30,815 nucleotides of DNA. Origin: a virus. Its lineage: Duplodnaviria > Heunggongvirae > Uroviricota > Caudoviricetes. Numbering within the stretch: position 1 is the first letter of the stretch; every line of letters begins with the position of its first letter. Shown in pieces: positions 3,479-26,824 of the stretch. The notes beneath the pieces are model-generated. The model saw nothing but the letters and a program-made list of their open reading frames with translations, had not been told where the DNA came from and ran no database searches. Position numbers and translations under genes: made by a program. Location: the IMG/VR virus record IMGVR_UViG_2531839668_000005; one strand, 5' to 3'.

Positions 3479-3939
3479 AATGGCTCCTTTTTTATTGTTG
3501 TGATTACAGACATGGCATATTTAATTTATTTGTCAATGGTTTTGATGATATTATTTTAATTATATCTTATTTGAATTTTTTATCCGTTCTTTGGTGGTGG
3601 TAATAGGTTGTAAAATTTGAAACGAGGGGTGCTAAATTTAACCATCACCTGTTATGTGATTGATAATTTTTGGTGCTGAAATTAACAACGGCATATTTTG
3701 TATAATCATATGATTTTATTAGATAATTTTTGATTTTGATCTGCAAGATAAAAGAGTGATAAAGAAATAAGAAACCACAGTTTTGCATTTGATCGATACT
3801 CAAGGCCTTGGTGTACCTGATGAAAACATTTTTATTATTGCTTTTCTTAAATAATATCATTTGTAAATTGAAGCCTGCGCAACTGTGTGTTACGCCCCAT
3901 TGGGCTTCAGAACATCACTATAGTGTTTTCAGTCAGTAT

Positions 3940-4053
3940 AAATACGCTTCGCGCACGAGTTCACAGTATTTAGGTTTACTGTCATTAAAAATACGCTTCG
4001 TGCAGAAGTTCAGAAAAATGGGGTTAGCTGTCAGCACAAATACGCTTCGCGCA
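3940..4053. repeat. three direct repeats of AAATACGCTTCG(C/T)GCA at 49-bp spacing (iteron-like)
   Basis: Copies at 3940-3955, 3989-4004 and 4038-4053; the first two continue with the related GAGTTCACAG / GAAGTTCAGA extension. Confidence 0.7.
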
Positions 4054-4517
4054 AAAAAAAATCAGGAGGCTAAGTTGATCGGGAAAGCGAACACAGATAC
4101 ATGATTTACCCGTTTGCTGACTACGGCTCACGCCGGGACCCTTCGGAAAAACCCTTTCTGCTTCAGCGAGTGAGTGCTGCGGGCACTCAGAGGCGCTGCC
4201 AGGGAGACAAAATTAAGTTTTTCAACTGTTTGGTAAAAATAATTAACATTTATAGGTAGTCGGGGCGTAAGCCAGTGCGTAGCACGCTCTCAAAAAATAT
4301 TCCTGTGGGTTTCTTATCTGCAATAGGGAAATAACTCAGATAATTGATATATGAAAAAACAATACAATCGGGAAGACACAACTTTAGCACAGTAAAAGCT
4401 ATTTGTATTTATGAGGAATAAAATATATATGAATAATAAAATATTTTTATTTTGCTATTGATTTTAATTTTTAAGATGATAGTACTTAATTATAAAAACA
4501 AAATAATGGAGGATATT

Positions 4518-4943
4518 ATGAGTGCTATTAATGTGTTATCTCAGGAGGAAAAATTTATACATGTTGTTGATAAATTTATAACCCATAATCACAACGGCGT
4601 TAATAACAATGTCTTTTATAAAAAACTTTATGTTCTCTTCGCCGGATATCATCTGAAGTATTTTTATTCACGGGCGCAATATCGCAATTCGTGTTATCAC
4701 GTTGATAATATCATGCAGATGTTTATGGGTGTCGTTTCTACCCTGAAGACCCCTCTGCTCAGGCAACTCGCAAACAGTGACACATTGCTGCATTGCCTGA
4801 ATTCGCTCGTGAATTATATTTCAGGCAATCTGGATGAAGCAGAGCACATTTATGCTGATTTACTGGCACAGTATGAAAAGAAACGCATTGCACGTTCTCT
4901 GGCTTATACACCACCAGGATCCGTGGTCAGGAAAAGACTGTGA
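4518..4943 (+). CDS. hypothetical protein (141 aa from the ATG at 4518)
   Basis: GGAGG 8 nt upstream of the ATG at 4518 (the track ORF starts earlier at 4452). C-terminus ...PPGSVVRKRL matches the C-terminus of the ankyrin protein at 8169-9122. Confidence 0.5.
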   Translation: MSAINVLSQEEKFIHVVDKFITHNHNGVNNNVFYKKLYVLFAGYHLKYFYSRAQYRNSCYHVDNIMQMFMGVVSTLKTPLLRQLANSDTLLHCLNSLVNYISGNLDEAEHIYADLLAQYEKKRIARSLAYTPPGSVVRKRL

Positions 4944-5084: not shown

Positions 5085-5363
5085 TTACTTATCAACGACC
5101 TGCCAGCCATCATCTGTTTTGACCAGCTTGACAGCCGCTGTGCGTTTTTCGTTATCGACAACAGCTGTTACATTGCATTTATAGCTTTTATCCGATAGTT
5201 TTTCGCAGTCGTGTTTTTTGACTGATTTTAACTTCCGCAGCATGTCAGGCGTGATATCGTTTCTCGCTATGGATTTAACGATGGCATTCGTCTGCTCCAC
5301 GACCTTATTCATCGCAGTGTAAATATCCTGCTCAGACGGTTCACTGGTGCAGCCGGTCAGCAA
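5085..5363 (-). CDS. putative lipoprotein, mature domain; signal peptide lies in an adjacent frame (possible frameshift)
   Basis: ORF begins L-T-G-C (lipobox) at a TTG. An ATG at 5402-5404 encodes MKTYAFTTLIASIF then stops; adding one T to the T6 run (plus-strand A6 at 5362-5367) would give MKTYAFTTLIASIFLLTGC..., a canonical lipoprotein signal peptide. Confidence 0.5.
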   Translation of the reverse strand: MLTGCTSEPSEQDIYTAMNKVVEQTNAIVKSIARNDITPDMLRKLKSVKKHDCEKLSDKSYKCNVTAVVDNEKRTAAVKLVKTDDGWQVVDK

Positions 5364-6327: not shown

Positions 6328-7563
6328 TTATGGTGCAGGATGGTTGTTGTTTTTAAATGATTGTTCTTTATTGGTATTTGTTGTCATGGGATGACAGGGT
6401 GTCAGAATATGTAGGTGGAGGATTTGGTGGAAAGGATGTGCAGTGGCATGTAACAGAGACATGCCTCTGCGCCTGAGAAGTGCCACAATATGGACGAGCA
6501 ATACAAGCCATGAATACAGACGACGCTGGCGGGGTATCTGACGAGCTGTATTGTGCAGATTGCTCCTGAGCTGGATGATACCCACTGTCTCCTGTTGTCT
6601 TTCCAGACGAATTTTTTCTTCAAGCTGATGGATTTTCTCCAGAATCGTTTCCCGGTTTGCAGCCTGCTCTTCAGACTCGCATGATGGCACTGGCACTGGC
6701 ACTGGCACTGGCACTGGCACTGGCACTGGCGCGGTTGTAGGTTCTATTGGCCTCTGGGCTTCTTTCAGTAAACTCAGATGCTCAGGCGTAAAATCAATCA
6801 GTGCTTGCAGGGAAGACCAGCCATATTTTTTACCCAACTGAGATGCTTTAAAGGCAATACCCTGGTATTGAAATGAAAATCCACTCATTTTACCCGTAGT
6901 GGCGATATTGGGTTTGCAGGTCACTCCTTCCTGTTCCAGTAAGCGAACAAAGGTTAGTAAATCGGGATGGTGTGTTAATGCATTGTCGAGCAGGGCCTGC
7001 AACAGTGACTTAGGGCAGGGAGCTGCTGTGCGTTCTGCCATCATCAGTTCATTACGGGAAGGCTTCCTTTTATCCTGGCGGCTACTGCCGGTTACACCCG
7101 TAGTTTCGGTGAGGCCGTGTACTCTCTCCAGCTCACTGATAATCCGTGTGCCGATAAGATTTTCATTTTTCCCCAGGTACAGTTTTCCACCGACCATGTT
7201 AATACGACTTGCAATGATATGAATATGCTGCCCATCCGGATCATCGTGCATGATATAGCAGCGAAGATGGGTGTCAGTGAAGCCCATTCGGGCCATATAA
7301 TCGTCAGCGAATGCTGCCCACTGTCTGTTTGACAGTTTCTCACCCTTTGGCAGGCGAAGTGAATTATGCCAGACAGGTTTGGCGACATCGGGACGCAGCA
7401 GTCGGGTGCCTTCAAATTCACTTATAAGCTCAGCAGCAGTGCTACCCGTCATGTTGCCACCGATGACATAAGGCGTGATTTTGTGGTGAGAACCTGACTT
7501 CAGGCTATAAATAACCACACCTGTGAATTGTTTACCCCTTTTTATTTTCTGCATGCCTTTCAT
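6328..7563 (-). CDS. mobA: MobA/relaxase-family mobilization protein (C-terminal boundary uncertain)
   Basis: N-terminal region contains the relaxase histidine triad context (HDDPDGQHIHIIASRI) and an early Tyr; start overlaps the mobC stop. Includes a (Pro-Val)7 linker; sequence after the linker is low-complexity and may not all be coding. Confidence 0.7.
   Translation of the reverse strand: MKGMQKIKRGKQFTGVVIYSLKSGSHHKITPYVIGGNMTGSTAAELISEFEGTRLLRPDVAKPVWHNSLRLPKGEKLSNRQWAAFADDYMARMGFTDTHLRCYIMHDDPDGQHIHIIASRINMVGGKLYLGKNENLIGTRIISELERVHGLTETTGVTGSSRQDKRKPSRNELMMAERTAAPCPKSLLQALLDNALTHHPDLLTFVRLLEQEGVTCKPNIATTGKMSGFSFQYQGIAFKASQLGKKYGWSSLQALIDFTPEHLSLLKEAQRPIEPTTAPVPVPVPVPVPVPVPSCESEEQAANRETILEKIHQLEEKIRLERQQETVGIIQLRSNLHNTARQIPRQRRLYSWLVLLVHIVALLRRRGMSLLHATAHPFHQILHLHILTPCHPMTTNTNKEQSFKNNNHPAP
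6688..6729. repeat. (CACTGG)7 perfect hexanucleotide tandem repeat
   Basis: Seven uninterrupted CACTGG units on the plus strand; on the minus strand they encode the PVPVPVPVPVPVPV linker inside mobA. Confidence 0.95.
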
Positions 7564-7967
7564 GGGTCTGACTCCAGAAATGTTGAGGGAATAAGGTGAT
7601 CCCTGAGAGTTTTGATTTGTCTGCGCAGGGCGAAGAGTTCTGTACGGGTCAGTTCGCTGTCAGGGCTTTTGCTGTCGAGATGACTCAACAGGTAGTTTAA
7701 ATCCTGTGAAAGGCTGCCAAGTTTTATCCATGCTTCACGATTGATTTCTGGCAGAACCGGCGGGAGTTTATTCAGGGAAGCCATCCTGAGCCATTCTCCT
7801 TTTTTATACTGACCTCTTTTACTGTCGAGAATAATTAATTCTTCTTCATTTAATCTGACACTGATGCAGTGATGTCGTATTTCATTCTCAGGAAATTTGT
7901 CAGTATGGAATTTACCGCGTTTTGATACTCTGGTTATATCATCATCATTACTCATGTCACTGTTCAT
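7560..7967 (-). CDS. mobC: MobC-like relaxosome accessory protein
   Basis: 135-aa ORF directly upstream of and overlapping the relaxase gene start, the conserved mobC-mobA arrangement; ELFALRRQIKTLRDHL region is typical of the family. Confidence 0.6.
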   Translation of the reverse strand: MNSDMSNDDDITRVSKRGKFHTDKFPENEIRHHCISVRLNEEELIILDSKRGQYKKGEWLRMASLNKLPPVLPEINREAWIKLGSLSQDLNYLLSHLDSKSPDSELTRTELFALRRQIKTLRDHLIPSTFLESDP

Positions 7968-8168
7968 AGTTATCCTTTTATTTCATGTTTATTACTACAG
8001 ATAACCGATGAAATGAATAAGTCAAGTTGTTACGGGATAAATAATTTAATTATCTGGATTAAAAAAGGTATACCATTTGACAAATAGTATACCCACGAGG
8101 ACATATCAGATTAATGGTCATTAAATGAATCCTTGCAGACTAAGAAAAGGGTTGTTTACTCCAGAGTT

Positions 8169-16927: not shown

Positions 16928-18157
16928 TTATGCGGCAATAACTTTGTATTTTTGAGACGAAACATAGTCACTCCACCATTGCATGAGAACCACACGTTCT
17001 GTGAGATACTCTGCACGATTGTAGGCTGCAATTATTTCATCTTTTTTCGAGTGGGCAAGGGCGGCTTCTAAGACATCAGTTCTAAACTTGCCACACTCCT
17101 CAGCCGCCGTTCTAGCGATTGATCGCATACCATGAGCTACAAGCTCACCTCCGAAGCCCATACGGATTATAGCCGCATTAGCTGTTTGTTCATGCATGTG
17201 ATTGAGTGGAGCTTTGATACTGGGAAAAACCCACTCTCTATGCCCGCTGATGGCTTTCATTGAATCCAAGACTCGCAAAGATTCTTTGCTCAGTGGAACT
17301 TTGTGAGGCTTCTTCATTTTCATAAACTCCGCCGGGATGTTCCACATGCTGGTTTCTATATCAATATCTGACCATCTTGTGCGAACAGCTTCACCAGGGC
17401 GAACCCATGTGAGAAGTTGCCACTCAATCAGTAGCCTTGTTTCTAAACGGATAGAAGCATTGTTTAGAGCAACCAGGAAGCGGGGGAGTTCGGAAGGGGG
17501 TAATGCTGGCATATTCTGTTTTTTTGGCTTGCTGAACCGTTGCCCCAGGTTGTCAGCCGGATTGAATTCTATGAGTTCTTCTGTTGCTGCATAGCGGAAA
17601 ATTTCATTCAGGCGGGATATGACGCGGCGAAGTGTTTCAAGGACACCTCGTTTTTCTATGGGGTCTAAATGCTGTTTAAGCATTTTAGGGCGAATCTCCT
17701 TAATGGGGGTATCACCCAACGTTGGAAAGATATTTCTCTCTAGGCTTCGCCAGATGTCGTTAGCATGATCCTGGGAGATGCCTGACGTTTTGACTTTCTC
17801 ATCAAGCCACTTCTTGGCTACTGCTTGAAATGTATGTTCCGTTGCATCCTTAAGGGCATTGGCTTTGTGGGTGTTATGAACTTGTGGGTCTATACCATTT
17901 GCAAGCAACGACAAGTACTCATCACGTAAAGCTCGTGCCTTCGCAAGTGTAAGGTGAGGATAGGTTCCTAAGCTCACCTTAGTTCGCTTTTTGGTCACAG
18001 GCACTGCATATCTGAAATACCAATTTTTCTTTCCTCCCTTCGCTAAGGGGGCGATTCGCAGGAGCAAACCATCGCCGTCAAAAAGGTTAACCTCTTTCTC
18101 GGCAGGTTTGGTGCTTTTGATTTCAGTGTCAGTGAGCTTCTTAGCGATTTTTGCCAT
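16928..18157 (-). CDS. int: P4-type tyrosine integrase
   Basis: From the ATG at 18155-18157: MAKIAKKLTDTEIKSTKPAEK...GLLLRIAP...WYFRY... N-terminal arm-binding domain and C-terminal HGMRS...Y catalytic region typical of P4/CP4-57 integrases; adjacent to the ssrA-derived att repeat. Confidence 0.85.
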   Translation of the reverse strand: MAKIAKKLTDTEIKSTKPAEKEVNLFDGDGLLLRIAPLAKGGKKNWYFRYAVPVTKKRTKVSLGTYPHLTLAKARALRDEYLSLLANGIDPQVHNTHKANALKDATEHTFQAVAKKWLDEKVKTSGISQDHANDIWRSLERNIFPTLGDTPIKEIRPKMLKQHLDPIEKRGVLETLRRVISRLNEIFRYAATEELIEFNPADNLGQRFSKPKKQNMPALPPSELPRFLVALNNASIRLETRLLIEWQLLTWVRPGEAVRTRWSDIDIETSMWNIPAEFMKMKKPHKVPLSKESLRVLDSMKAISGHREWVFPSIKAPLNHMHEQTANAAIIRMGFGGELVAHGMRSIARTAAEECGKFRTDVLEAALAHSKKDEIIAAYNRAEYLTERVVLMQWWSDYVSSQKYKVIAA

Positions 18158-18323
18158 GTTTGGGACCCTCATGTTTTGGACCCTTTGTGTTGGGTCCCAA
18201 AAAGGGTGCCATAACGAGTAGATTCTAGCAATTCTCGGTAGACTACTATAGACGTAAAAAAGCCCGCAAGGCTGGTTCCATGCGGGCTTGATAGACTTCA
18301 CTGAACTTCAATATATCAAAAAT

Positions 18324-18368
18324 TGGTGGAGCTGGCGGGAGTTGAACCCGCGTCCGAAATTCCTACAT
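18324..18368 (-). other. ssrA: partial ssrA (tmRNA) 3' end, attachment-site repeat
   Basis: Plus strand TGGTGGAGCTGGCGGGAGTTGAACCCGCGTCCGAAATTCCTACAT is the reverse complement of the 3' terminus of E. coli tmRNA as recalled; the match stops after 45 nt, so only the 3' end is present. Confidence 0.8.
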
Positions 18369-19130
18369 AGCATTTCAATGTCTGTAAAAACAATGATTTG
18401 CTTTGATTTTCAGTTGGTTAGATTTATGCGGTGTCTGTCCGTTTTATGGGTTTTTAACTTTCTGCCGCCAAAGTGCCGCCACTGCATTTGTCGCCTAAAC
18501 GCCTATTCGAAACGATTAATCTCTCGGCGATCTTAATCTTGGAGAGCTTATCTAGGCAGATAAAGCATATTGCTACTCCCGATACCACAAAATAGCTGCT
18601 TAAACCAAAGTATTGCCAAGTAGTTAGATGGTTTATCTTCTCCATCATCTTAGCACTTACTACAACAGAATAACTGAAAGGAAGTGCTACGATGAGACTG
18701 CTCATGAAGTAAATTAGAGTTGTTATGATTTTTATTAATTTTCTATATATGCTGTATTTATATCTTTTTTTATTCCATGCGAATATTTCTTTATGGGTGG
18801 TAATGGAAATTAGACTTTGACATTGGAATAATTATCTATATCGCTAACGGGGTTTGTTGTGTTGAGTAATATTAATCTTTGTTTTTTGTCAATGTGTTAT
18901 CTTTGGTTAATGCAGCAATGCCGTAATCTTCCGCCAGTTTTTTGAAGGTCGGATCTTCACTGCTTTTATACATCTGATATGAAAATTCGCTAATGTTTTT
19001 ACGTGATGTGAATAGTTTATCTTTTTTATAAGTCCACCCTGTTTTAAGCCCTAATAAGGATATAATGGCAGATAGGGAAGGGAATAATATTTTTATAAGT
19101 AACTCTAGTTCGCTATTCATAAATTACTAC

Positions 19131-20147
19131 TTACCTCAAATTAAATAAAGGATTTTTAGTTACGGCATCTTCTAAATGGTCTGGGGCGAAGTGTGCATAG
19201 ACCATGGTCATTTTTATATCTGAATGTCCTAGGATATCCCGCAAAACCAATATGTTTCCACCATTCATCATAAAATGGCTAGCGAATGTATGACGCAGAA
19301 CGTGAGTACATTGACCCTCTGGCAGATCGATACCAGCCCGCTTTACTGCACGCTCAAAGGCTTTTCTGCATGGGGTGAATAACTTCCCCCTATTCTTAGG
19401 CAGTTCTTCATATAAATCCTTAGAAATAGGCACAGTTCGGTTTTTCTTGCCTTTGGTCTTGGTATAAGTGATACGGTATTTTGATACCTGATGACTCTGC
19501 AGGTTTTCGGCTTCGCTCCAGCGTGCGCCGGTGGCCAGGCATATTTTTGCAATCAAAAGCAGGCTGGAGCTTTGAGAATCGGCGCAGGCATCCAGCAGAC
19601 GTTTAATTTCTTCCGGGGTCAGGAACGCCAATTCACTCTCAGCAATTTTAAATGTTGGCAGCCCAGCAAGCGGGTTGGGGGCTGACCAGTGGCCCAGCTT
19701 TTTCAGCGTACCAAAAACAGATGATAGATTGCGCTGTTCAAGGTTTACCGTGCGGGGCTTAACGGGCGACATAAACGTGCCATCTTCATTTCGTACTTCA
19801 CCTTTTAACCGTGCTTCGCGGTATTTCGTAAAGTCACCGGCTGTCAGTTCTGAGGCGATGGGGTCGCCTAGACCATTACAGATAATTCTAAGTTTCGCCA
19901 TGAGGCGCTTGGGGTCTGCGAGTGTCTGACCATACAGGGAATACCAAAGCTCAATTAATTCTGATAGGTGTCGCCGATCATCCTTTTCTCCTAACCACGG
20001 TTTTTTGTTCACTTCTTCCATTGTGAAGCTTTCAAATGCAATGGCTTCGCCTTTGGTAGCAAATTGCTTACGCACGCGCTTACCATTGCGTCCATTGGGA
20101 TAGCACTCACACAACCATTTTCCGTTCGGCTGTTTTCTGATGGTCAT
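19131..20147 (-). CDS. int: P2/186-type phage tyrosine integrase
   Basis: N-terminus ...YPNGRNGKRVRKQFATKGEAIAFE... and C-terminal HVLRHTFASHFMMNGG...LGHSDIKMTMVYAH catalytic region; followed by the CI repressor gene on the same strand. Confidence 0.85.
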   Translation of the reverse strand: MTIRKQPNGKWLCECYPNGRNGKRVRKQFATKGEAIAFESFTMEEVNKKPWLGEKDDRRHLSELIELWYSLYGQTLADPKRLMAKLRIICNGLGDPIASELTAGDFTKYREARLKGEVRNEDGTFMSPVKPRTVNLEQRNLSSVFGTLKKLGHWSAPNPLAGLPTFKIAESELAFLTPEEIKRLLDACADSQSSSLLLIAKICLATGARWSEAENLQSHQVSKYRITYTKTKGKKNRTVPISKDLYEELPKNRGKLFTPCRKAFERAVKRAGIDLPEGQCTHVLRHTFASHFMMNGGNILVLRDILGHSDIKMTMVYAHFAPDHLEDAVTKNPLFNLR

Positions 20148-20150
20148 AAG

Positions 20151-20789
20151 TTAGAGGTTCTTGATTACTTTGACTGCACGTCCTACAACTTCCACATCAT
20201 CTACAGAACATTCAAATGAAGTGTCATCTTGGCTAACTACTATTTTGTTTCCGGGTATGCGCGCAATTTTGACGATGCTTTTAACTCCGTCCATATCGAC
20301 TAACCAGAAGCCATTACTGACTTGTTTAACGGACGTATCCACTACAAAGCTATTATTAGCTGTTTTAACAAATAAAGCGTTGGATGAGTCACCATCGAGC
20401 AGGCTGCTATCAAGAAGAATTTCATCACTTGCCTGCAGTTCGCCGTTCTTCAGTTCAACACGTTTGATGCTAGGAGCAACGATCTTAGAAAGTGGTCTTA
20501 CAGTGACGGGAGGTTCATTTTTGAGATTTGTTTCTTCGTTCTCACACGCATACATATCTCCTTGACCAGTAGCCAGCCATAGAAGGGAAGCTCCTGTTTC
20601 AAGGGCACATTGAATTACCCATTCGGCAGGAAAGCTATCCCTTAAGTATCTGTTAGCCATAGTGCTTTTGGATACTTCCAGATGTTCGCAGAGCTGCTGT
20701 CGTGAGCTGAAGTTGTAAGCCTTAATAAGCCTGTTAATTGCATCGCGCCCACCACTATCATTTCCCGCTTTGATTAAACTCATAATCAA
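20151..20789 (-). CDS. cI: 186-like CI immunity repressor
   Basis: CALETGASLLWLATGQGDMY and C-terminal WLVDMDGVKSIVKIARIPGNK...FECSVDDVEVVGRAVKV closely resemble phage 186 CI as recalled. Confidence 0.75.
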   Translation of the reverse strand: MIMSLIKAGNDSGGRDAINRLIKAYNFSSRQQLCEHLEVSKSTMANRYLRDSFPAEWVIQCALETGASLLWLATGQGDMYACENEETNLKNEPPVTVRPLSKIVAPSIKRVELKNGELQASDEILLDSSLLDGDSSNALFVKTANNSFVVDTSVKQVSNGFWLVDMDGVKSIVKIARIPGNKIVVSQDDTSFECSVDDVEVVGRAVKVIKNL

Positions 20790-20794
20790 ACCTC

Positions 20795-20823
20795 TTGACG
20801 TATATAAAAAGTGATCTTAATAT
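20795..20823 (+). promoter_or_regulatory. sigma70-type promoter candidate for the early lytic operon (pR-like)
   Basis: TTGACG (20795-20800), 17-bp spacer, TAATAT (20818-20823), in the cI to apl intergenic switch region. Confidence 0.45.
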
Positions 20824-20899
20824 CCATTCATGGTTTGAAAAGCAAAACCAAACCACATAAAACAAGATAAAACGAAACCAAACTAAGAGATACTGCACT

Positions 20900-21058
20900 A
20901 TGAGTACTGATATTTCAATTCGTGTACCAAAAGAGATGGCAACGCCTGCTGAGTTCGCTGAATGGGAAGGTATCTCCCGCGGCTCTGTGTATCAAAAAAT
21001 TCACCATGGTCAGCTTGCTAAATACATGGTCAAGAAGGAAAAAACAAAGGCCGCGTAA
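20900..21058 (+). CDS. Apl/Cox-like small HTH excision-regulatory protein (52 aa)
   Basis: Small ORF, not in the supplied track, at the position of apl/cox in P2/186-like phages; translated by eye as MSTDISIRVPKEMATPAEFAEWEGISRGSVYQKIHHGQLAKYMVKKEKTKAA. Confidence 0.5.
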   Translation: MSTDISIRVPKEMATPAEFAEWEGISRGSVYQKIHHGQLAKYMVKKEKTKAA

Positions 21059-21173
21059 GCCTGCGTTATTTAATGTACAAAACCGATCAGGTCCGTGAAT
21101 CCCTCGGTCATTCCAACTTCCGCGTCATTGTTGGTAAGTAAGTTCAATTATGAGAACTTTCTAAGGGGGTAGC

Positions 21174-21683
21174 ATGTTTGATTATAAGATTTCCAAACAC
21201 CCGCATTTTGATGAAGCCTGTAGAGCTTTTGCACTTCGTCACAATATGGCGAAGCTGGCAGAACGTGCAGGAATGAATGTCCAGACTCTGCGAAACAAAC
21301 TCAACCCAGATCAACCGCATCAGCTCAATGCGCCAGAAATCTGGCTGCTTACCGATCTGACTGAAGATTCAACGCTGATAGATGGTTTTCTGGCACAGAT
21401 TCACTGCCTGCCATGTGTACCGATTAATGAGGTAGCAAAAGAGAAACTGCCGCATTACGTCATGAGTGCAACCGCAGAGATCGGGCGTGTTGCTGCAGGT
21501 GCGGTATCTGGCGATGTAAAAACCAGTGCCGGTCGTCGTGATGCCATCAGCAGCATTAATTCTGTAACACGACTGATGGCGCTGGCGGCTGTTTCATTGC
21601 AGGCCCGTTTACAGGCTAACCCTGCGATGGCGAGTGCAGTTGATACTGTGACTGGCCTCGGTGCTTCATTCGGTTTGCTGTGA
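21174..21683 (+). CDS. cII: 186-like CII regulatory protein
   Basis: 169 aa, HTH region AKLAERAGMNVQTLRNKLNP; position and size match phage 186 CII. Confidence 0.65.
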   Translation: MFDYKISKHPHFDEACRAFALRHNMAKLAERAGMNVQTLRNKLNPDQPHQLNAPEIWLLTDLTEDSTLIDGFLAQIHCLPCVPINEVAKEKLPHYVMSATAEIGRVAAGAVSGDVKTSAGRRDAISSINSVTRLMALAAVSLQARLQANPAMASAVDTVTGLGASFGLL

Positions 21684-21690
21684 GGTGCTT

Positions 21691-21987
21691 ATGCTGACGA
21701 AAGAACCATCATTTGCGTCGCTGCTGGTAAAACAAAGTCCGGCAATGCACTACGGTCACGGCTGGATCACGGGTGAGGATGGAAAACGCTGGCATCCATG
21801 TCATTCACAAGATGAATTGCTGTCTGAATTGACCACGAGGAAACGGAGAAAGTCCAAATGTATGCGGCAGAAAGTGAAGTGGTTTATCAGTTTCGTTACA
21901 GAGGGGAGAGTTATTCAGTACCTGAAGATGATTTGCTCTGTTGCTATCCGTCATTGTCGGGCGATGGCAGTTACTTTTTCACGTTAA
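21691..21987 (+). CDS. hypothetical phage early protein (possibly Fil-like); 3' boundary uncertain
   Basis: ATG at 21691 preceded by GAGGTG; overlaps the next ORF in another frame, so one of the two boundaries is wrong. Confidence 0.3.
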   Translation: MLTKEPSFASLLVKQSPAMHYGHGWITGEDGKRWHPCHSQDELLSELTTRKRRKSKCMRQKVKWFISFVTEGRVIQYLKMICSVAIRHCRAMAVTFSR

Positions 21988-22082
21988 AGGATGGGACGTT
22001 TTTACGGGGAGAGCAGGTTAAAGAGACGATACGAAAAAATGTATCTCCTCTTGAGCGTTACCGTAAGAACAAAGAACGATAG
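21858..22082 (+). CDS. hypothetical phage early protein (74 aa)
   Basis: ATG with GGAGAAAG upstream; within the early operon. Confidence 0.4.
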   Translation: MYAAESEVVYQFRYRGESYSVPEDDLLCCYPSLSGDGSYFFTLKDGTFLRGEQVKETIRKNVSPLERYRKNKER

Positions 22083-22104
22083 CTGCGTTTGGGGGATATG
22101 AAGT

Positions 22105-22446
22105 ATGGCAATTAATGGCGCTGCAGCAACTGTTCCATTAAGCCCCGGTGAACGCCTGAATGGACTTAATCACATTGCGGAGTTAAGGGCGAAAGTTTTT
22201 GGCATGAATATTGAGTCAGAGCTTGAGCGGTTTATTAAAGATATGCGTGATCCACGGGATATCAATAATGAACAAAATAAACGGGCACTGGCTGCCATAT
22301 TCTTTATGGCAAAAATTCCAGCTGAACGTCATAGCATCAGCATTAATGAGCTGACCACTGACGAAAAGCGGGAGCTGATTAAAGCAATGAATCATTTTCG
22401 TGCAGTGGTGAGCTTATTTCCCAGACGGCTAACCATGCCGAATTAA
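22105..22446 (+). CDS. hypothetical phage early protein (113 aa)
   Basis: ORF in the early operon; no family recognised. Confidence 0.45.
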   Translation: MAINGAAATVPLSPGERLNGLNHIAELRAKVFGMNIESELERFIKDMRDPRDINNEQNKRALAAIFFMAKIPAERHSISINELTTDEKRELIKAMNHFRAVVSLFPRRLTMPN

Positions 22447-22513
22447 CCAACTAATGAAATTAATGGCGTAAACCCGCCGGGCATCCCTTTATCTAAATTC
22501 AGGAGAATTGATT

Positions 22514-22747
22514 ATGCGTAATATTGAAACCCTCACGACTAAAACCGGACCGGATGATGCAGGGCTTAATATTTTACTGACAGAGGCTCGTCTGGAAGAA
22601 CGCCGGGCAAGGGCTGAAGCAATGGCAGCTCGCCTTGATAGCCTGGCGTGTCATATCACATCCCGCCAACTAAACCACGTCGAAGCGGCAGAACTGCTGC
22701 GTGTGACTGCTGAAGCAATCCAGAACGAAGCGCAGGAGATCCACTGA
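22514..22747 (+). CDS. hypothetical phage early protein (77 aa from the ATG at 22514)
   Basis: AGGAG at 22501-22505 before the ATG at 22514; stop overlaps the next start (TGATG). Confidence 0.45.
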   Translation: MRNIETLTTKTGPDDAGLNILLTEARLEERRARAEAMAARLDSLACHITSRQLNHVEAAELLRVTAEAIQNEAQEIH

Positions 22748-22974
22748 TGGCTGATGCAATGGATCTCGTACAGCAGCGAGTTGAAGAAGAACGCCAACGT
22801 CATATCCGTGCTGCCCGTGCCAAAGCGCCGGGCGTGTCCCGCGTGCTTTGCGTTGAGTGTGAAGCGCCAATTCCGCCAGCACGCCGCCGTGCCATTCCGG
22901 GGGTGCAGCTTTGCATTACCTGTCAGGAAATCGCAGAGCTGAAAGGCAAACATTACAACGGAGGTGCTGTATGA
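22747..22974 (+). CDS. TraR/DksA-family C4 zinc-finger protein
   Basis: 75 aa with CVECEAPIPPARRRAIPGVQLCITCQ (Cys-x2-Cys ... Cys-x2-Cys), as found in the P2-like zinc-finger early protein. Confidence 0.7.
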   Translation: MADAMDLVQQRVEEERQRHIRAARAKAPGVSRVLCVECEAPIPPARRRAIPGVQLCITCQEIAELKGKHYNGGAV

Positions 22975-23828
22975 GCACCATCCTGAAATGGGCGGGAAAT
23001 AAAACCGCCATTATGTCCGAACTGAAAAAACACCTTCCTGCTGGCCCGCGACTGGTTGAACCTTTCGCGGGTTCCTGTGCTGTGATGATGGAGACGGATT
23101 ACCCCAGCTATCTGGTTGCGGATATTAATCCTGATTTAATCAACCTCTATAAAAAGGTTGCTGCTGATTGTGAATCGTTTATATCTCGCGCCAGAGTTTT
23201 ATTTGAGATCGCAAACAGGGAGGTGGCTTATTACAACATAAGGCAGGAGTTTAATTACTCCACTGAAATTACTGATTTCATGAAAGCGGTATATTTCCTG
23301 TATCTCAATCGTCACGGTTACCGTGGTTTATGTCGCTATAACAAGAGCGGGCATTTCAACATTCCCTACGGTAATTATAAAAATCCGTATTTCCCTGAAA
23401 AAGAAATTCGCGCATTTGCAGAAAAGGCCCAGCGAGCAACGTTTATCTGCGCCAGCTTTGATGAAACGCTGGCGATGTTGAAGGCGGGGGATGTGGTGTA
23501 TTGCGATCCGCCGTATGACGGTACGTTTTCCGGCTATCACACTGATGGTTTCACTGAAGATGACCAGTATCACCTGGCATCTGTTCTTGAACATCGGTCA
23601 TCAGAAGGACATCCGGTCATTGTTTCTAACAGTGACACATCCCTGATCCGTTCGCTGTATCGCAATTTTACTCACCACTACATCAAGGCAAAACGCAGCA
23701 TCGGTGTGGCAGCTGGCGAGGGTAAATCAGCAACAGAAATCATTGCTGTTTCCGGGCCGCGCTGCTGGGTGGGATTTGATTATTCGCGTGGCGTGGATAG
23801 TTCTGCCGTGTACGGAGTACGTGCATGA
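22971..23828 (+). CDS. dam: DNA adenine methyltransferase (Dam-like, N6-adenine, DPPY motif)
   Basis: [11 protein letters not shown]...FAGSCAV (AdoMet-binding region) and YCDPPYDG catalytic motif; GGAGG upstream of the ATG at 22971; stop overlaps the gene A start (ATGA). Confidence 0.85.
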
Positions 23829-26239
23829 GCCATGCCGATATGAACAACTGCTGCGGCTTTAACGAGGCTGCCGCATCGTTCTCATGGAACAGCCCGAAAA
23901 AGGCCATTAACCCTTATCTGGACCCGGCGGAAGTTGCGCCGGTTTCTGCGCTTTCAAACCTGATCACTCTGTACGCTGCCGATAACGAGCAGGAACAGCT
24001 GCGCCGCGAGGCACTGAGTGATCAGGTCTGGGAGCGTTATTTCTTTAATGAATCCCGTGATCCTGTCCAGCGCGAAATGGAGCAGGATAAGCTCATTAGT
24101 CGGGCAAAGCTGGCGCATGAGCAGCAGCGTTTTAATCCAGATATGGTCATTCTGGCGGACGTCAATGCCCAGCCTTCCCATATCAGCAAGCCGCTGATGC
24201 AACGTATTGAATACTTCAGCAGCCTGGGCAGGCCAAAGGCTTATTCCCGCTATTTGCGTGAGACGATTAAGCCATGTCTGGAACGACTGGAGCATGTACG
24301 CGACAGTCAGCTATCCGCTTCTTTTCGCTTTATGGCAAGCCATGAAGGGCTGGATGGCCTGCTTATCCTGCCTGAAATGAGTCAGGATCAGGTGAAGCGC
24401 CTGTCTACCCTTGTCGCTGCGCATATGAGCATGTGCCTTGATGCAGCTTGTGGTGATTTGTATGCCACCGATGACGTTAAGCCAGAAGAAATCCGCAAGA
24501 CATGGGAAAAGGTGGCAGCGGAAACCCTGCGTCTGGATGTTATCCCGCCTGCGTTTGAGCAACTCCGTCGGAAAAGAAACCGCCGTAAACCCGTGCCCTA
24601 TGAACTCATTCCGGGTTCGCTGGCGCGTATGTTGTGCGCTGACTGGTGGTACCGGAAATTATGGAAGATGCGTTGCGAATGGCGGGAAGAGCAGTTGCGT
24701 GCTGTCTGCCTGGTCAGCAAAAAAGCATCTCCCTATGTCAGCTATGAAGCCGTGATGCATAAACGTGAGCAGCGCCGTAAGTCGCTGGAGTTTTTTCGTT
24801 CTCATGAACTGGTGAACGAAGACGGCGACACGCTGGACATGGAGGATGTGGTAAACGCCAGCAGCAGCAACCCTGCGCATCGCCGCAATGAGATGATGGC
24901 CTGTGTTAAAGGCCTGGAGCTTATCGCGGAAATGCGTGGTGACTGCGCCGTTTTCTACACCATTACCTGTCCGTCACGTTTCCATTCCACGCTCAATAAC
25001 GGCAGACCAAACCCAACCTGGACAAATGCGACGGTAAGACAAAGCAGCGATTATCTGGTCGGCATGTTTGCTGCATTTCGTAAGGCGATGCACAAAGCCG
25101 GGTTGCGCTGGTATGGCGTGCGGGTGGCTGAGCCGCATCATGACGGTACGGTTCACTGGCACCTGTTGTGTTTCATGCGCAAAAAAGACCGCCGTGCCAT
25201 TACTGCATTGTTGCGTAAGTTTGCCATCCGTGAAGACCGCGAGGAACTGGGTAATAACACTGGTCCACGCTTTAAATCTGAGCTGATAAACCCGCGCAAA
25301 GGAACACCGACAAGCTACATCGCGAAATACATTAGTAAGAACATTGACGGGCGTGGTCTGGCTGGCGAGATCAGCAAGGAAACGGGTAAATCCCTGCGTG
25401 ATAACGCTGAATACGTTAATGCCTGGGCGTCTCTGCATCGTGTTCAGCAATTCCGCTTCTTTGGTATTCCGGGGCGTCAGGCTTACCGTGAACTGCGATT
25501 GCTGGCTGGTCAGGCGGCAAGGCAACAGGGCGACAAAAAAGCAGGTGCGCCGGTACTGGATAACCCGCGCCTTGATGCCATCCTGGCTGCTGCTGATGCT
25601 GGTTGTTTTGCCACTTACATCATGAAGCAGGGTGGTGTACTGGTTCCCCGCAAATATCACCTCATCAGAACTGCTTATGAAATTAACGAAGAGCCGACCG
25701 CCTATGGCGATCACGGCATTCGTATTTATGGCATCTGGTCACCCATTGCAGAGGGCAAGATCTGCACTCATGCAGTGAAGTGGAAAATGGTTCGTAAAGC
25801 CGTTGACGTTCAGGAGGCGGTAGCCGACCAGGGCGCTTGCGCCCCTTGGACTCGTGGCAATAACTGTCCCCTTGCTGAAAATTTGTACCAACAAGGGAAA
25901 GACAAATCAGCTGATGGAGATACCAGAACGGATATCACCCGCATGGATGACAAGGAGTTGCACGATTACCTGCACAGTATGAGCAAAAAAGAGCGCCGGG
26001 AACTGGCAGCAAGGTTACGCCTGGTGAAACCGAAACGGCGTAAAGACTACAAACAGCGAATTACAGATCATCAGCGACAGCAGCTCGTGTATGAACTGAA
26101 GTCCAGGGGATTTGATGGCAGCGAGAAAGAGGTCGATTTACTGCTTCGCGGCGGCAGTATTCCGTCAGGAGCAGGCCTGCGTATCTTCTATCGGAACCAG
26201 CGTTTGCAGGAAGATGATAAGTGGCGAAACCTGTATTAA
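23825..26239 (+). CDS. P2/186 gene-A-type rolling-circle replication initiator (HUH endonuclease)
   Basis: HWHLLCF (HUH motif) and SYIAKYISK (catalytic tyrosine motif); roughly 800 aa, as for P2 gpA. Confidence 0.85.
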
Positions 26240-26331
26240 TTACGCGGGTTAACAATTCGTGCTCTTAATAATACCAGGCATATCAGGCCGATGAGCGTAA
26301 AAAAACGTTTTACATCAGTAAGATTATTATA

Positions 26332-26351
26332 TACTGTAAATATAAACAGTG
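26332..26351. promoter_or_regulatory. LexA (SOS) box
   Basis: taCTGTaaatataaACAGtg: exact CTGT-N8-ACAG with an AT-rich spacer, about 40 bp upstream of the 26392 ORF. Confidence 0.6.
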
Positions 26352-26391
26352 GTTATTTATACAGTATTTCTTTGGTGTTATAGGAGGAAAG

Positions 26392-26580
26392 ATGCAGGAC
26401 TATTTTTTGGAGTCTTTGAAGCTCCAGCGCATTGATTTTTTTCTTAAGCTTGTAGCGGCTAGTGAGTGTAGTGATGAAGAGAAGGGGCTGGCTTTGCAGT
26501 GGGTTTCTGAACTGACAGATGAACTCATGGCAAAAATCAGAACCCACGAATACAACCGCTCAATGGATGTCATCAGTTGA
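26392..26580 (+). CDS. hypothetical protein, possibly the N-terminal part of a Tum-type SOS-inducible antirepressor
   Basis: GGAGG before the ATG; immediately downstream of the LexA box; overlaps the upstream extension of the DinI-like ORF in another frame. Confidence 0.4.
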   Translation: MQDYFLESLKLQRIDFFLKLVAASECSDEEKGLALQWVSELTDELMAKIRTHEYNRSMDVIS

Positions 26581-26590
26581 GGTGACTTTT

Positions 26591-26824
26591 ATGCGCATTG
26601 AAATAATGATCGATAAAGAGCAGAAGATTAGCCAGTCTACCCTGGACGCCTTTGAATCCGAGCTTTACCGCAATCTGCGCCCCCTGTATCCCAAAACGGT
26701 AATTCGTATCCGTAAAGGTAGCTCTAACGGTGTGGAACTGACCGGACTGCAACTGGACGAAGAAAGGAAACAAGTAATGAAAATTATGCAGAAGGTGTGG
26801 GAAGACGACAGCTGGCTGCATTAA
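26591..26824 (+). CDS. DinI-family protein (Tum C-terminal-domain-like)
   Basis: MRIEIMIDKEQ...YPKTVIRIRKGSSNGVELTG...VWEDDSWL parallels E. coli DinI (MRIEVTIAK...VSVRYAAANNLSVIG...TWESADDWF) as recalled. Confidence 0.7.
   Translation: MRIEIMIDKEQKISQSTLDAFESELYRNLRPLYPKTVIRIRKGSSNGVELTGLQLDEERKQVMKIMQKVWEDDSWLH

Follow-up and report, generated by a model that had tools for sequence, protein, structure and literature searches.

An in-frame hexanucleotide microsatellite of variable length in the relaxase of an ssrA-integrated island of Enterobacterales

We analysed a window of 30,815 nucleotides (IMG/VR virus record IMGVR_UViG_2531839668_000005; the window is the whole stretch of DNA considered here), in which the relaxase gene of an island integrated at ssrA contains seven perfect copies of a hexanucleotide that encode a Pro-Val tract. 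Among Escherichia coli chromosomes carrying near-identical copies of this gene, the number of units ranges from 4 to 13, and the ORF (open reading frame) is intact in all alleles examined. We consider it about 75% probable that the array is a slippage-prone coding microsatellite in a length-tolerant linker that would tether two modules of the relaxase to each other.

Direct reading of the sequence gives (CACTGG)7 on the plus strand at 6688–6729 with no mismatch. Tandem Repeats Finder reported the array at 6685–6730 with a period of 6, 7.7 copies, 100% matches, 0 indels and a score of 92, and this was the sole array with more than 2.6 copies in the 30.8-kb window. On the minus strand, the same stretch reads (CCA GTG)7 CCA TCA and is translated as (Pro-Val)7-Pro-Ser at residues 279–294 of the 411-residue ORF. 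Perfect head-to-tail units with a length that is a multiple of three are therefore found inside an ORF and in frame, as defines a coding microsatellite, and the seven units encoding (Pro-Val)7 that a sequence-only reading of the window had pointed out were recovered by direct reading, by Tandem Repeats Finder and in the in-frame ORF. By our own arithmetic, the chance that 36 further bases repeat the first unit is ~4^-36 per position and ~1e-17 window-wide; a chance origin of the array is negligible.

To describe the variation of the array within E. coli, we used 5426 complete genomes, 171 of which (about 3%) contained 174 matching places, all of them chromosomal. The 58 near-identical E. coli copies listed had spans of 1622, 1634, 1640, 1646, 1652, 1658, 1664, 1670 or 1676 bp only; the differences were thus confined to multiples of 6 bp, indicating that the length changes unit by unit. 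When one representative of each span class was read, perfect arrays of 4, 6, 7, 8, 9, 10, 11, 12 and 13 units were found, and the 15 nt on either side of the array were identical in the representatives of all nine classes. Assigned by span, the 58 copies comprised 17 with 7 units, 10 with 8, 7 with 6, 6 each with 9 and 11, 4 each with 12 and 13, 3 with 10 and 1 with 4, and a 5-unit allele was found as a protein (P0001). More divergent E. coli alleles likewise differed in 6-bp steps (1565, 1571 and 1577). All examined alleles were in frame and encoded a full-length ORF of 399–436 aa, which supports the earlier proposal that the repeat forms a frame-preserving hinge of variable length.

The sequences around the array were far less variable than the array itself. 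With the array excluded, the surrounding 4.6 kb showed 0–5 substitutions between E. coli copies of different length (two loci carrying insertion sequence (IS) elements in their flanks were left out of this comparison), and 6-, 7- and 11-unit copies were identical outside the array over the 4.6 kb. Two isolates of one clone, Res13-Lact from pigs in Quebec (L001 and L002), displayed 0 substitutions and two indels over 41.6 kb, and one of the two indels was a single repeat unit (+1). The other, a loss of 15 bp, adjoins one end of an IS2 copy and lies upstream of a NACHT-domain gene (L001 26192/L002 26198). A single array length was observed within each of three further clone sets (the MRE162 substrains, Z217-2/-4 and TB4019/TB4328), indicating that the locus, though fast, is not unstable over laboratory time spans.

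The gene containing the array encodes a relaxase of the PF03432 superfamily that lies outside all named curated NCBIfam subfamilies. The Pfam Relaxase family PF03432 (MobA/VirD2-like nuclease) scored 80.7 bits over residues 32–151 (gathering score 24.6; E 1.6e-22). Across two clades that are ~52% identical, represented by 61 aligned sequences, Y19, H106, D108, H113 and H115 were invariant (HxDx(n)HxH motif), and these residues probably represent the catalytic Tyr and the His-triad metal site. The top Foldseek matches in the PDB were 2ns6 (the minimal relaxase domain of R1162 MobA) and 4lvl (MobM), with a probability of 0.99 and a target-normalised template modelling (TM) score of 0.46–0.51; the E-values were weak (about 0.01) because the whole multi-domain model served as the query. 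The protein missed the curated NCBIfam cut-offs for TraI_MobP_relax (52.2 vs 250 bits), Bacteroid_MobB (57.5 vs 400) and MbpB (41.7 vs 400). The earlier name 'MobA' is thus right in calling the protein a relaxase and stands otherwise as a generic label only, since the cut-offs of every curated NCBIfam relaxase subfamily were missed. A sequence search of the PDB picked up a polyketide synthase, through its PV tract only (E 0.48), which is uninformative. In PLSDB, no plasmid gave a near-DNA match, and one full-length relative was found at the protein level (OX345050.1, 66% identity); this is a 3.6-kb linear contig labelled plasmid, and we set it aside.

An AlphaFold2 model built on the 61-sequence alignment (mean predicted local distance difference test score (pLDDT) 63) places the array between folded parts of the protein. 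The HUH relaxase domain is followed by a predicted disordered loop and then by a second folded domain (residues 185–270), which more distant relatives retain along with the relaxase domain; matches to distant relaxases, by tblastn and other searches, stop at about residue 250–261. Residues 272–297, which include the repeat, are predicted to be unstructured. A helical hairpin is predicted after them, and then a disordered tail of ~45 residues. The model agrees with the original description of the repeat as a linker between the N-terminal relaxase domain and the C-terminal region.

We also compared the homologous site in other lineages, using a cross-genus set of 45 loci from one-genome-per-species contigs. 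Relatives with 75–86% identity, from Leclercia, Citrobacter, Phytobacter, Kluyvera, Lelliottia, Enterobacter, Superficieibacter and Atlantibacter, carried (PV)n with CCAGTG as the unit or (PM)n with CCAATG, in tracts ranging from 1–2 dipeptides to 18 perfect DNA units. Relatives with ~50% identity (Kluyvera, Erwinia, Rahnella and Citrobacter amalonaticus) had (PA)n at the corresponding site; the unit was either CCTGCT, in up to 23 perfect copies, or CCAGCA, and a second protein search of this PA clade gave a similar spread of lengths. In Erwinia tracheiphila, PV at the homologous position was encoded by CCTGTC. At least five hexamers, all of them encoding Pro-X, have therefore been found at this site in 1–23 units, the long arrays being perfect at the DNA level, and a constant Pro-X reading from five DNA units indicates that the conserved property is the peptide and not a nucleotide motif. 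The copy number varies across related loci, up to 18 PV and 23 PA units in other genera, which contradicts an invariant repeat.

Length variation was linked to the purity of the array. The commonest allele class, with 47 of the 120 clusters among the matches listed, had a short interrupted linker ending ...VPLTVPVPSC; all 47 clusters were 403 aa long, or 400 aa with a shorter N-terminus, and two of them were each present on >500 contigs. This short interrupted tract is length-invariant, so that length variation follows array purity, as slippage predicts. In the more distant relaxases (L035–L047), homology ended at about residue 261, the repeat was lacking and the C-terminal part was different, indicating that the repeat marks the junction of an N-terminal module that is widely shared and a C-terminal domain specific to the lineage. 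Additional tracts were seen in a few proteins: four members of the PA clade (P0131, P0135, P0142 and P0144) had a second array, (Ser-Ala)n, directly after (Pro-Ala)n, and P0143 had a second PV tract after a conserved KDV motif. More than one microsatellite is found in the linker region.

The region after the repeat had been read from the sequence as low-complexity, leaving the C-terminal boundary of the protein uncertain. The present results revise both statements, since a conserved, predicted helical segment follows the repeat, disorder is predicted for the last ~45 residues only, and the boundary is settled for the annotated ORF end at 6328. The best 120 homologues all covered 100% of the query, and most shared the stop position. 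In a codon alignment of 19 sequences, the ratio of nonsynonymous to synonymous divergence (dN/dS) was 0.12 for residues 1–160, 0.16 for residues 161–270, 0.36 for residues 294–350 and 0.43 for residues 351–411. For the post-repeat region, the two other frames gave 0.76 (+1) and 1.30 (+2), and the relaxase frame had the lowest dN/dS in every region tested. Full coverage in the homologues, together with purifying selection in frame, indicates that the C-terminal boundary is sound; the annotated C-terminus is real but under weaker constraint than the N-terminal module. When the C-terminal 118 residues alone were compared with 1.84 billion representative proteins, 7 matches only were obtained, all of them short fragments, which suggests that the C-terminal domain is essentially private to this relaxase family. 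A transmembrane anchor was considered for the helix at 345–365 and rejected, because the homologous stretch of the PA clade has Arg and Glu in its consensus; the helix is more likely amphipathic than membrane-spanning.

Synonymous divergence (pS) was low at 6514–6684 (residues 294–350), at 0.19 vs 0.43 in the N-terminal part, and was below half the value for the rest of the gene. An overlapping gene was rejected as its cause, given that no alternative frame was consistently open and that the dN/dS values of the other frames were those stated above; no conserved overlapping ORF was found after the repeat, and no alternative frame was open in all relatives.

We propose that the coding hexanucleotide microsatellite changes length by replication slippage in whole 6-bp units, so that each event would add or remove one Pro-Val dipeptide in an unstructured and probably extended spacer. 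This spacer would tether an N-terminal DNA-processing module (the HUH domain and the second domain, residues 1–270) to the C-terminal helical domain (298–365), and changes in its length would be tolerated, so that polymorphism builds up. With a unit divisible by three and a segment that would be no more than a spacer, a length change would leave the frame and both domains intact. Tandem repeats misalign during replication, and MutS-dependent repair in E. coli leaves loops larger than about 4 nt uncorrected, a limit that would allow 6-nt slippage intermediates to escape repair. Alternating Pro-X tracts, such as (Glu-Pro)n(Lys-Pro)n of TonB, form extended spacers, and we estimate that 4–13 units would extend over ~25–80 Å at about 3 Å per residue. 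We infer slippage as the mechanism, escape from mismatch repair, near-neutrality of the length changes and the role of the segment as a tether.

Several points weigh against this proposal. Slippage has been deduced rather than seen directly, and the near-neutrality of the length changes is an assumption. Pure arrays at one site in lineages that are ~50% identical might just as well result from selection for variability. Some members of the family have only 1–2 units (the 399-aa forms), indicating that a long spacer is not required, an observation that fits tolerance and is silent on the optimum length. Finally, only one of the two tethered partners has a known function.

Selection for variability would imply that the array acts as a tuning knob, an evolvable spacer whose length determines how far the DNA-bound module can extend from a C-terminal docking or oligomerisation domain and thereby adapts the relaxase to helper machineries or to a transfer frequency. 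The retention of Pro-X in pure arrays of five DNA units at one domain junction across such divergent clades, and a copy number spanning 1–23, are consistent with this possibility, as is the purifying selection on the rest of the relaxase, which argues that the element is not simply decaying. However, no preferred length emerged, the modes being 7 for the E. coli allele, 5 for the PA clade and 2 for the commonest allele, and forms with 1–2 units were widespread, on hundreds of contigs. In addition, the purity of the arrays would be explained by high turnover alone where only benign Pro-X units can expand. We regard adaptive tuning as rather unlikely. Its broader form appears similarly doubtful, namely that Pro-X microsatellites are a family-wide evolvability device, actively maintained and repeatedly rebuilt from different codons where the DNA-processing module meets a C-terminal docking domain, by which the relaxases of Enterobacterales islands rapidly and reversibly retune the hijacking of different helper conjugation systems.

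A role of the repeat at the DNA or RNA level, for instance in protein binding, as a hotspot of recombination or as a structured RNA, would make its coding capacity incidental. The low synonymous divergence just downstream of the repeat hints at nucleotide constraint, but the unit differs between clades while the Pro-X reading stays, a scan of the whole window with Rfam gave no match, and no alternative frame across the repeat was consistently open; we consider such a role very improbable. An equally slim chance is given to an overlapping gene in another frame that would span the repeat or start near it and own the variable tract. In RSF1010, mobB overlaps within mobA in another frame. Here, the +1 frame was open across the repeat in several sequences (for example, gene nt 821–1159, 113 codons), and its dN/dS after the repeat was intermediate; however, it was broken by stops in the close relatives L012, L013, L018, L022 and L019, the +2 frame exceeded a dN/dS of 1, and the relaxase frame had the lowest value throughout. 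Least probable of all is that the differences in copy number are sequencing or assembly artefacts: the source of the window does show single-base homopolymer indels (about 5366, 15733 and 15798), but the differences are exact 6-bp multiples in dozens of independent complete genomes from different laboratories, the length classes recur in several genomes, the array (24–78 bp) is below the length of a single short read, and matching variation is present in independent protein databases. The interpretation that we retain is that of a slippage-prone coding microsatellite in a tolerant linker.

The relaxase gene lies on an island that is shared by the window from position 1 to about 18368, where ssrA 3'-end sequence is found at about 18325–18368 (the coordinates of the features are given in Table 1). 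In L001, the island abuts the annotated ssrA (transfer-messenger RNA, tmRNA), like the integrase/ssrA arrangement of the window; neither ARAGORN nor Rfam detected a complete tmRNA in the window. In RefSeq, the island of L001 and L002 comprises the relaxase, a tyrosine integrase, a serine recombinase, two ParB-like genes and variable cargo, which includes NACHT and RelA/SpoT genes and IS elements; no type IV secretion system (T4SS) or type IV coupling protein (T4CP) genes were present in this annotation. The island has the anatomy of an ssrA-integrated integrative mobilizable element (IME) and would presumably be mobilised by a helper; no experimental report of its excision or mobilisation was found. 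Membership of the recently described PIME family was rejected, as its hallmark genes trbJ/trbL, alpA and repA are absent here. The 135-aa gene next to the relaxase had no Pfam or NCBIfam match and is labelled hypothetical or 'ATP-binding' in RefSeq. Of 18 close cross-genus loci, 8 had the inverted repeat upstream of the mob genes at a constant distance from the start of the relaxase (486–487 nt before it), and it is a candidate hairpin of an origin of transfer (oriT); no nick site was identified.

Other parts of the window were also inspected. An ankyrin-repeat protein of 317 aa (8169–9122; Pfam Ank_2/Ank_4) is encoded immediately upstream of the mob genes; it was kept in all E. coli copies examined and is unusual cargo for a bacterial island. 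At 10507–11768, the window has an IS3 copy where L001 (24182–28793) has IS2 and NACHT-domain and RelA/SpoT-domain genes, the latter two being likely a defence module. The serine recombinase (15091–16651) forms two ORFs here, split by two single-base deletions in T-runs at about 15733 and 15798, whereas L001 has an intact 518-aa gene; it is a pseudogene, or else the source assembly contains homopolymer errors. At about 5366, an A-run is one base shorter than in all other copies, and the small hypothetical protein at 5085–5363 has a shortened N-terminus as a result (92 vs 106 aa in the RefSeq copies); the three indels suggest homopolymer errors in the source of the window. Tandem Repeats Finder also reported two lesser repeats in the non-coding stretch upstream of the ORF at 4452–4943, a 49-bp repeat at 3925–4053 (2.6 copies, 76% matches) and an 18-bp AT-rich repeat at 4406–4444 (2.2 copies), and these may be iteron-like or have a regulatory role. 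Next to the island, in tandem with it, is a P2-like prophage (18368–30815).

Table 1. Coordinates of the relaxase, its parts and other features of the window.
Feature	Position	Strand	Basis or context
Relaxase gene, 411 aa + stop codon	6328..7563	-	Pfam PF03432, invariant residues, Foldseek
N-terminal HUH relaxase (nuclease) domain, residues 1-148	7120..7563	-	Pfam, AlphaFold2, Foldseek
Second folded domain, residues 185-270, predicted helices then beta sheet	6754..7011	-	pLDDT 68-88, AlphaFold2
Inter-domain linker including the repeat, residues 272-297, predicted unstructured	6673..6750	-	AlphaFold2 pLDDT <50, no secondary structure
(CCAGTG)7 hexanucleotide microsatellite, (Pro-Val)7, relaxase residues 279-292	6688..6729	-	Direct reading, Tandem Repeats Finder, ORF
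Family-specific C-terminal helical hairpin (predicted): helix 298-342, helix 345-365	6469..6672	-	AlphaFold2, dN/dS
135-aa gene in MobC-like accessory position, stop overlaps relaxase start by 4 nt	7560..7967	-	ORF
13-nt inverted repeat GGTATACTATTTG/CAAATGGTATACC, 92% complementary, then T-run	8067..8093	-	Upstream of mob genes
Tyrosine integrase of the island, adjoins ssrA 3' end	16928..18301	-	Pfam Phage_integrase, Arm-DNA-bind_3, Phage_int_M
Prophage integrase	19131-20147		
Prophage CI repressor	20151-20789		
Prophage Dam-type methyltransferase	22911-23828		
Prophage replication protein GPA	23825-26239		
Prophage portal	29530-30630		

Within the searchable literature, only unrelated papers were retrieved, and none dealt with a repetitive, Pro-rich or length-variable relaxase linker, nor with this repeat or the PV peptide. 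The mechanism that we favour is ordinary and not new, and it is the site that is new: a hypervariable in-frame microsatellite in the relaxase of an ssrA-integrated Enterobacterales island. Among relaxases, the closest comparison is with MobA of RSF1010/R1162 (MOBQ, 2ns6), which likewise has an N-terminal HUH domain with a Tyr near the N-terminus and a His triad, and a separate C-terminal domain. IncQ-like plasmid relaxases are ~43% identical to the present protein, over residues 6–253 only. Unlike RSF1010/R1162 MobA, the island relaxase is without a primase domain and ends in a C-terminal helical hairpin of ~70 residues that is found almost only in this family; to our knowledge, no repetitive linker is known in RSF1010 MobA. 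RSF1010/R1162 MobA is mobilised by a helper conjugation system, and the same is presumed of the island relaxase. The repeat precisely marks a domain boundary in an uncharacterised relaxase family and could thus aid the design of constructs.

As a spacer, the linker resembles the Pro-rich segments of other proteins, including (Glu-Pro)n(Lys-Pro)n of TonB, the Ala-Pro linkers of the E2 chains of 2-oxo-acid dehydrogenases and the hinge of OmpA, in that alternating Pro-X dipeptides join two functional parts and are expected to be extended and length-tolerant. It differs from them in that their length is largely fixed within a species and no perfect microsatellite encodes them, whereas a perfect array varies here between near-identical strains. 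In this respect, it is closer to known coding variable-number tandem repeats (VNTRs), such as the loci with 6-bp units used in multiple-locus VNTR analysis (MLVA) of E. coli O157:H7 and the Ser-Asp repeats of the staphylococcal Clf/Sdr proteins, with which it shares units within an ORF that are multiples of three, polymorphism between close strains and a spacer-like low-complexity peptide. Unlike the repeats of the Clf/Sdr type, it is located in a cytoplasmic relaxase of a chromosomal mobilizable island and not in a surface protein. E. coli has few long perfect microsatellites, and discussion of hypermutable coding repeats usually centres on the surface proteins of host-adapted pathogens; here, such a repeat is part of a transfer enzyme, that of a chromosomal mobilizable island on which defence genes are often found. 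Even if its variation is neutral, the array would provide a high-resolution marker for island-carrying sublineages, given 4–13 units on near-identical backgrounds and one change within a clone.

Lastly, the array is similar to the contingency loci of Haemophilus, Neisseria and Campylobacter, as a hypermutable repeat within a gene would produce heritable and reversible variation by slippage. Unlike those loci, there is no ON/OFF switching, and the variation is quantitative, in the length of a spacer; the locus is not a phase-variable ON/OFF locus because the 6-bp unit keeps the frame and the full ORF in every observed allele. If the length of the linker affects mobilisation, this quantitative variation would give such islands a simple and fast route to adjust their exploitation of helper plasmids.

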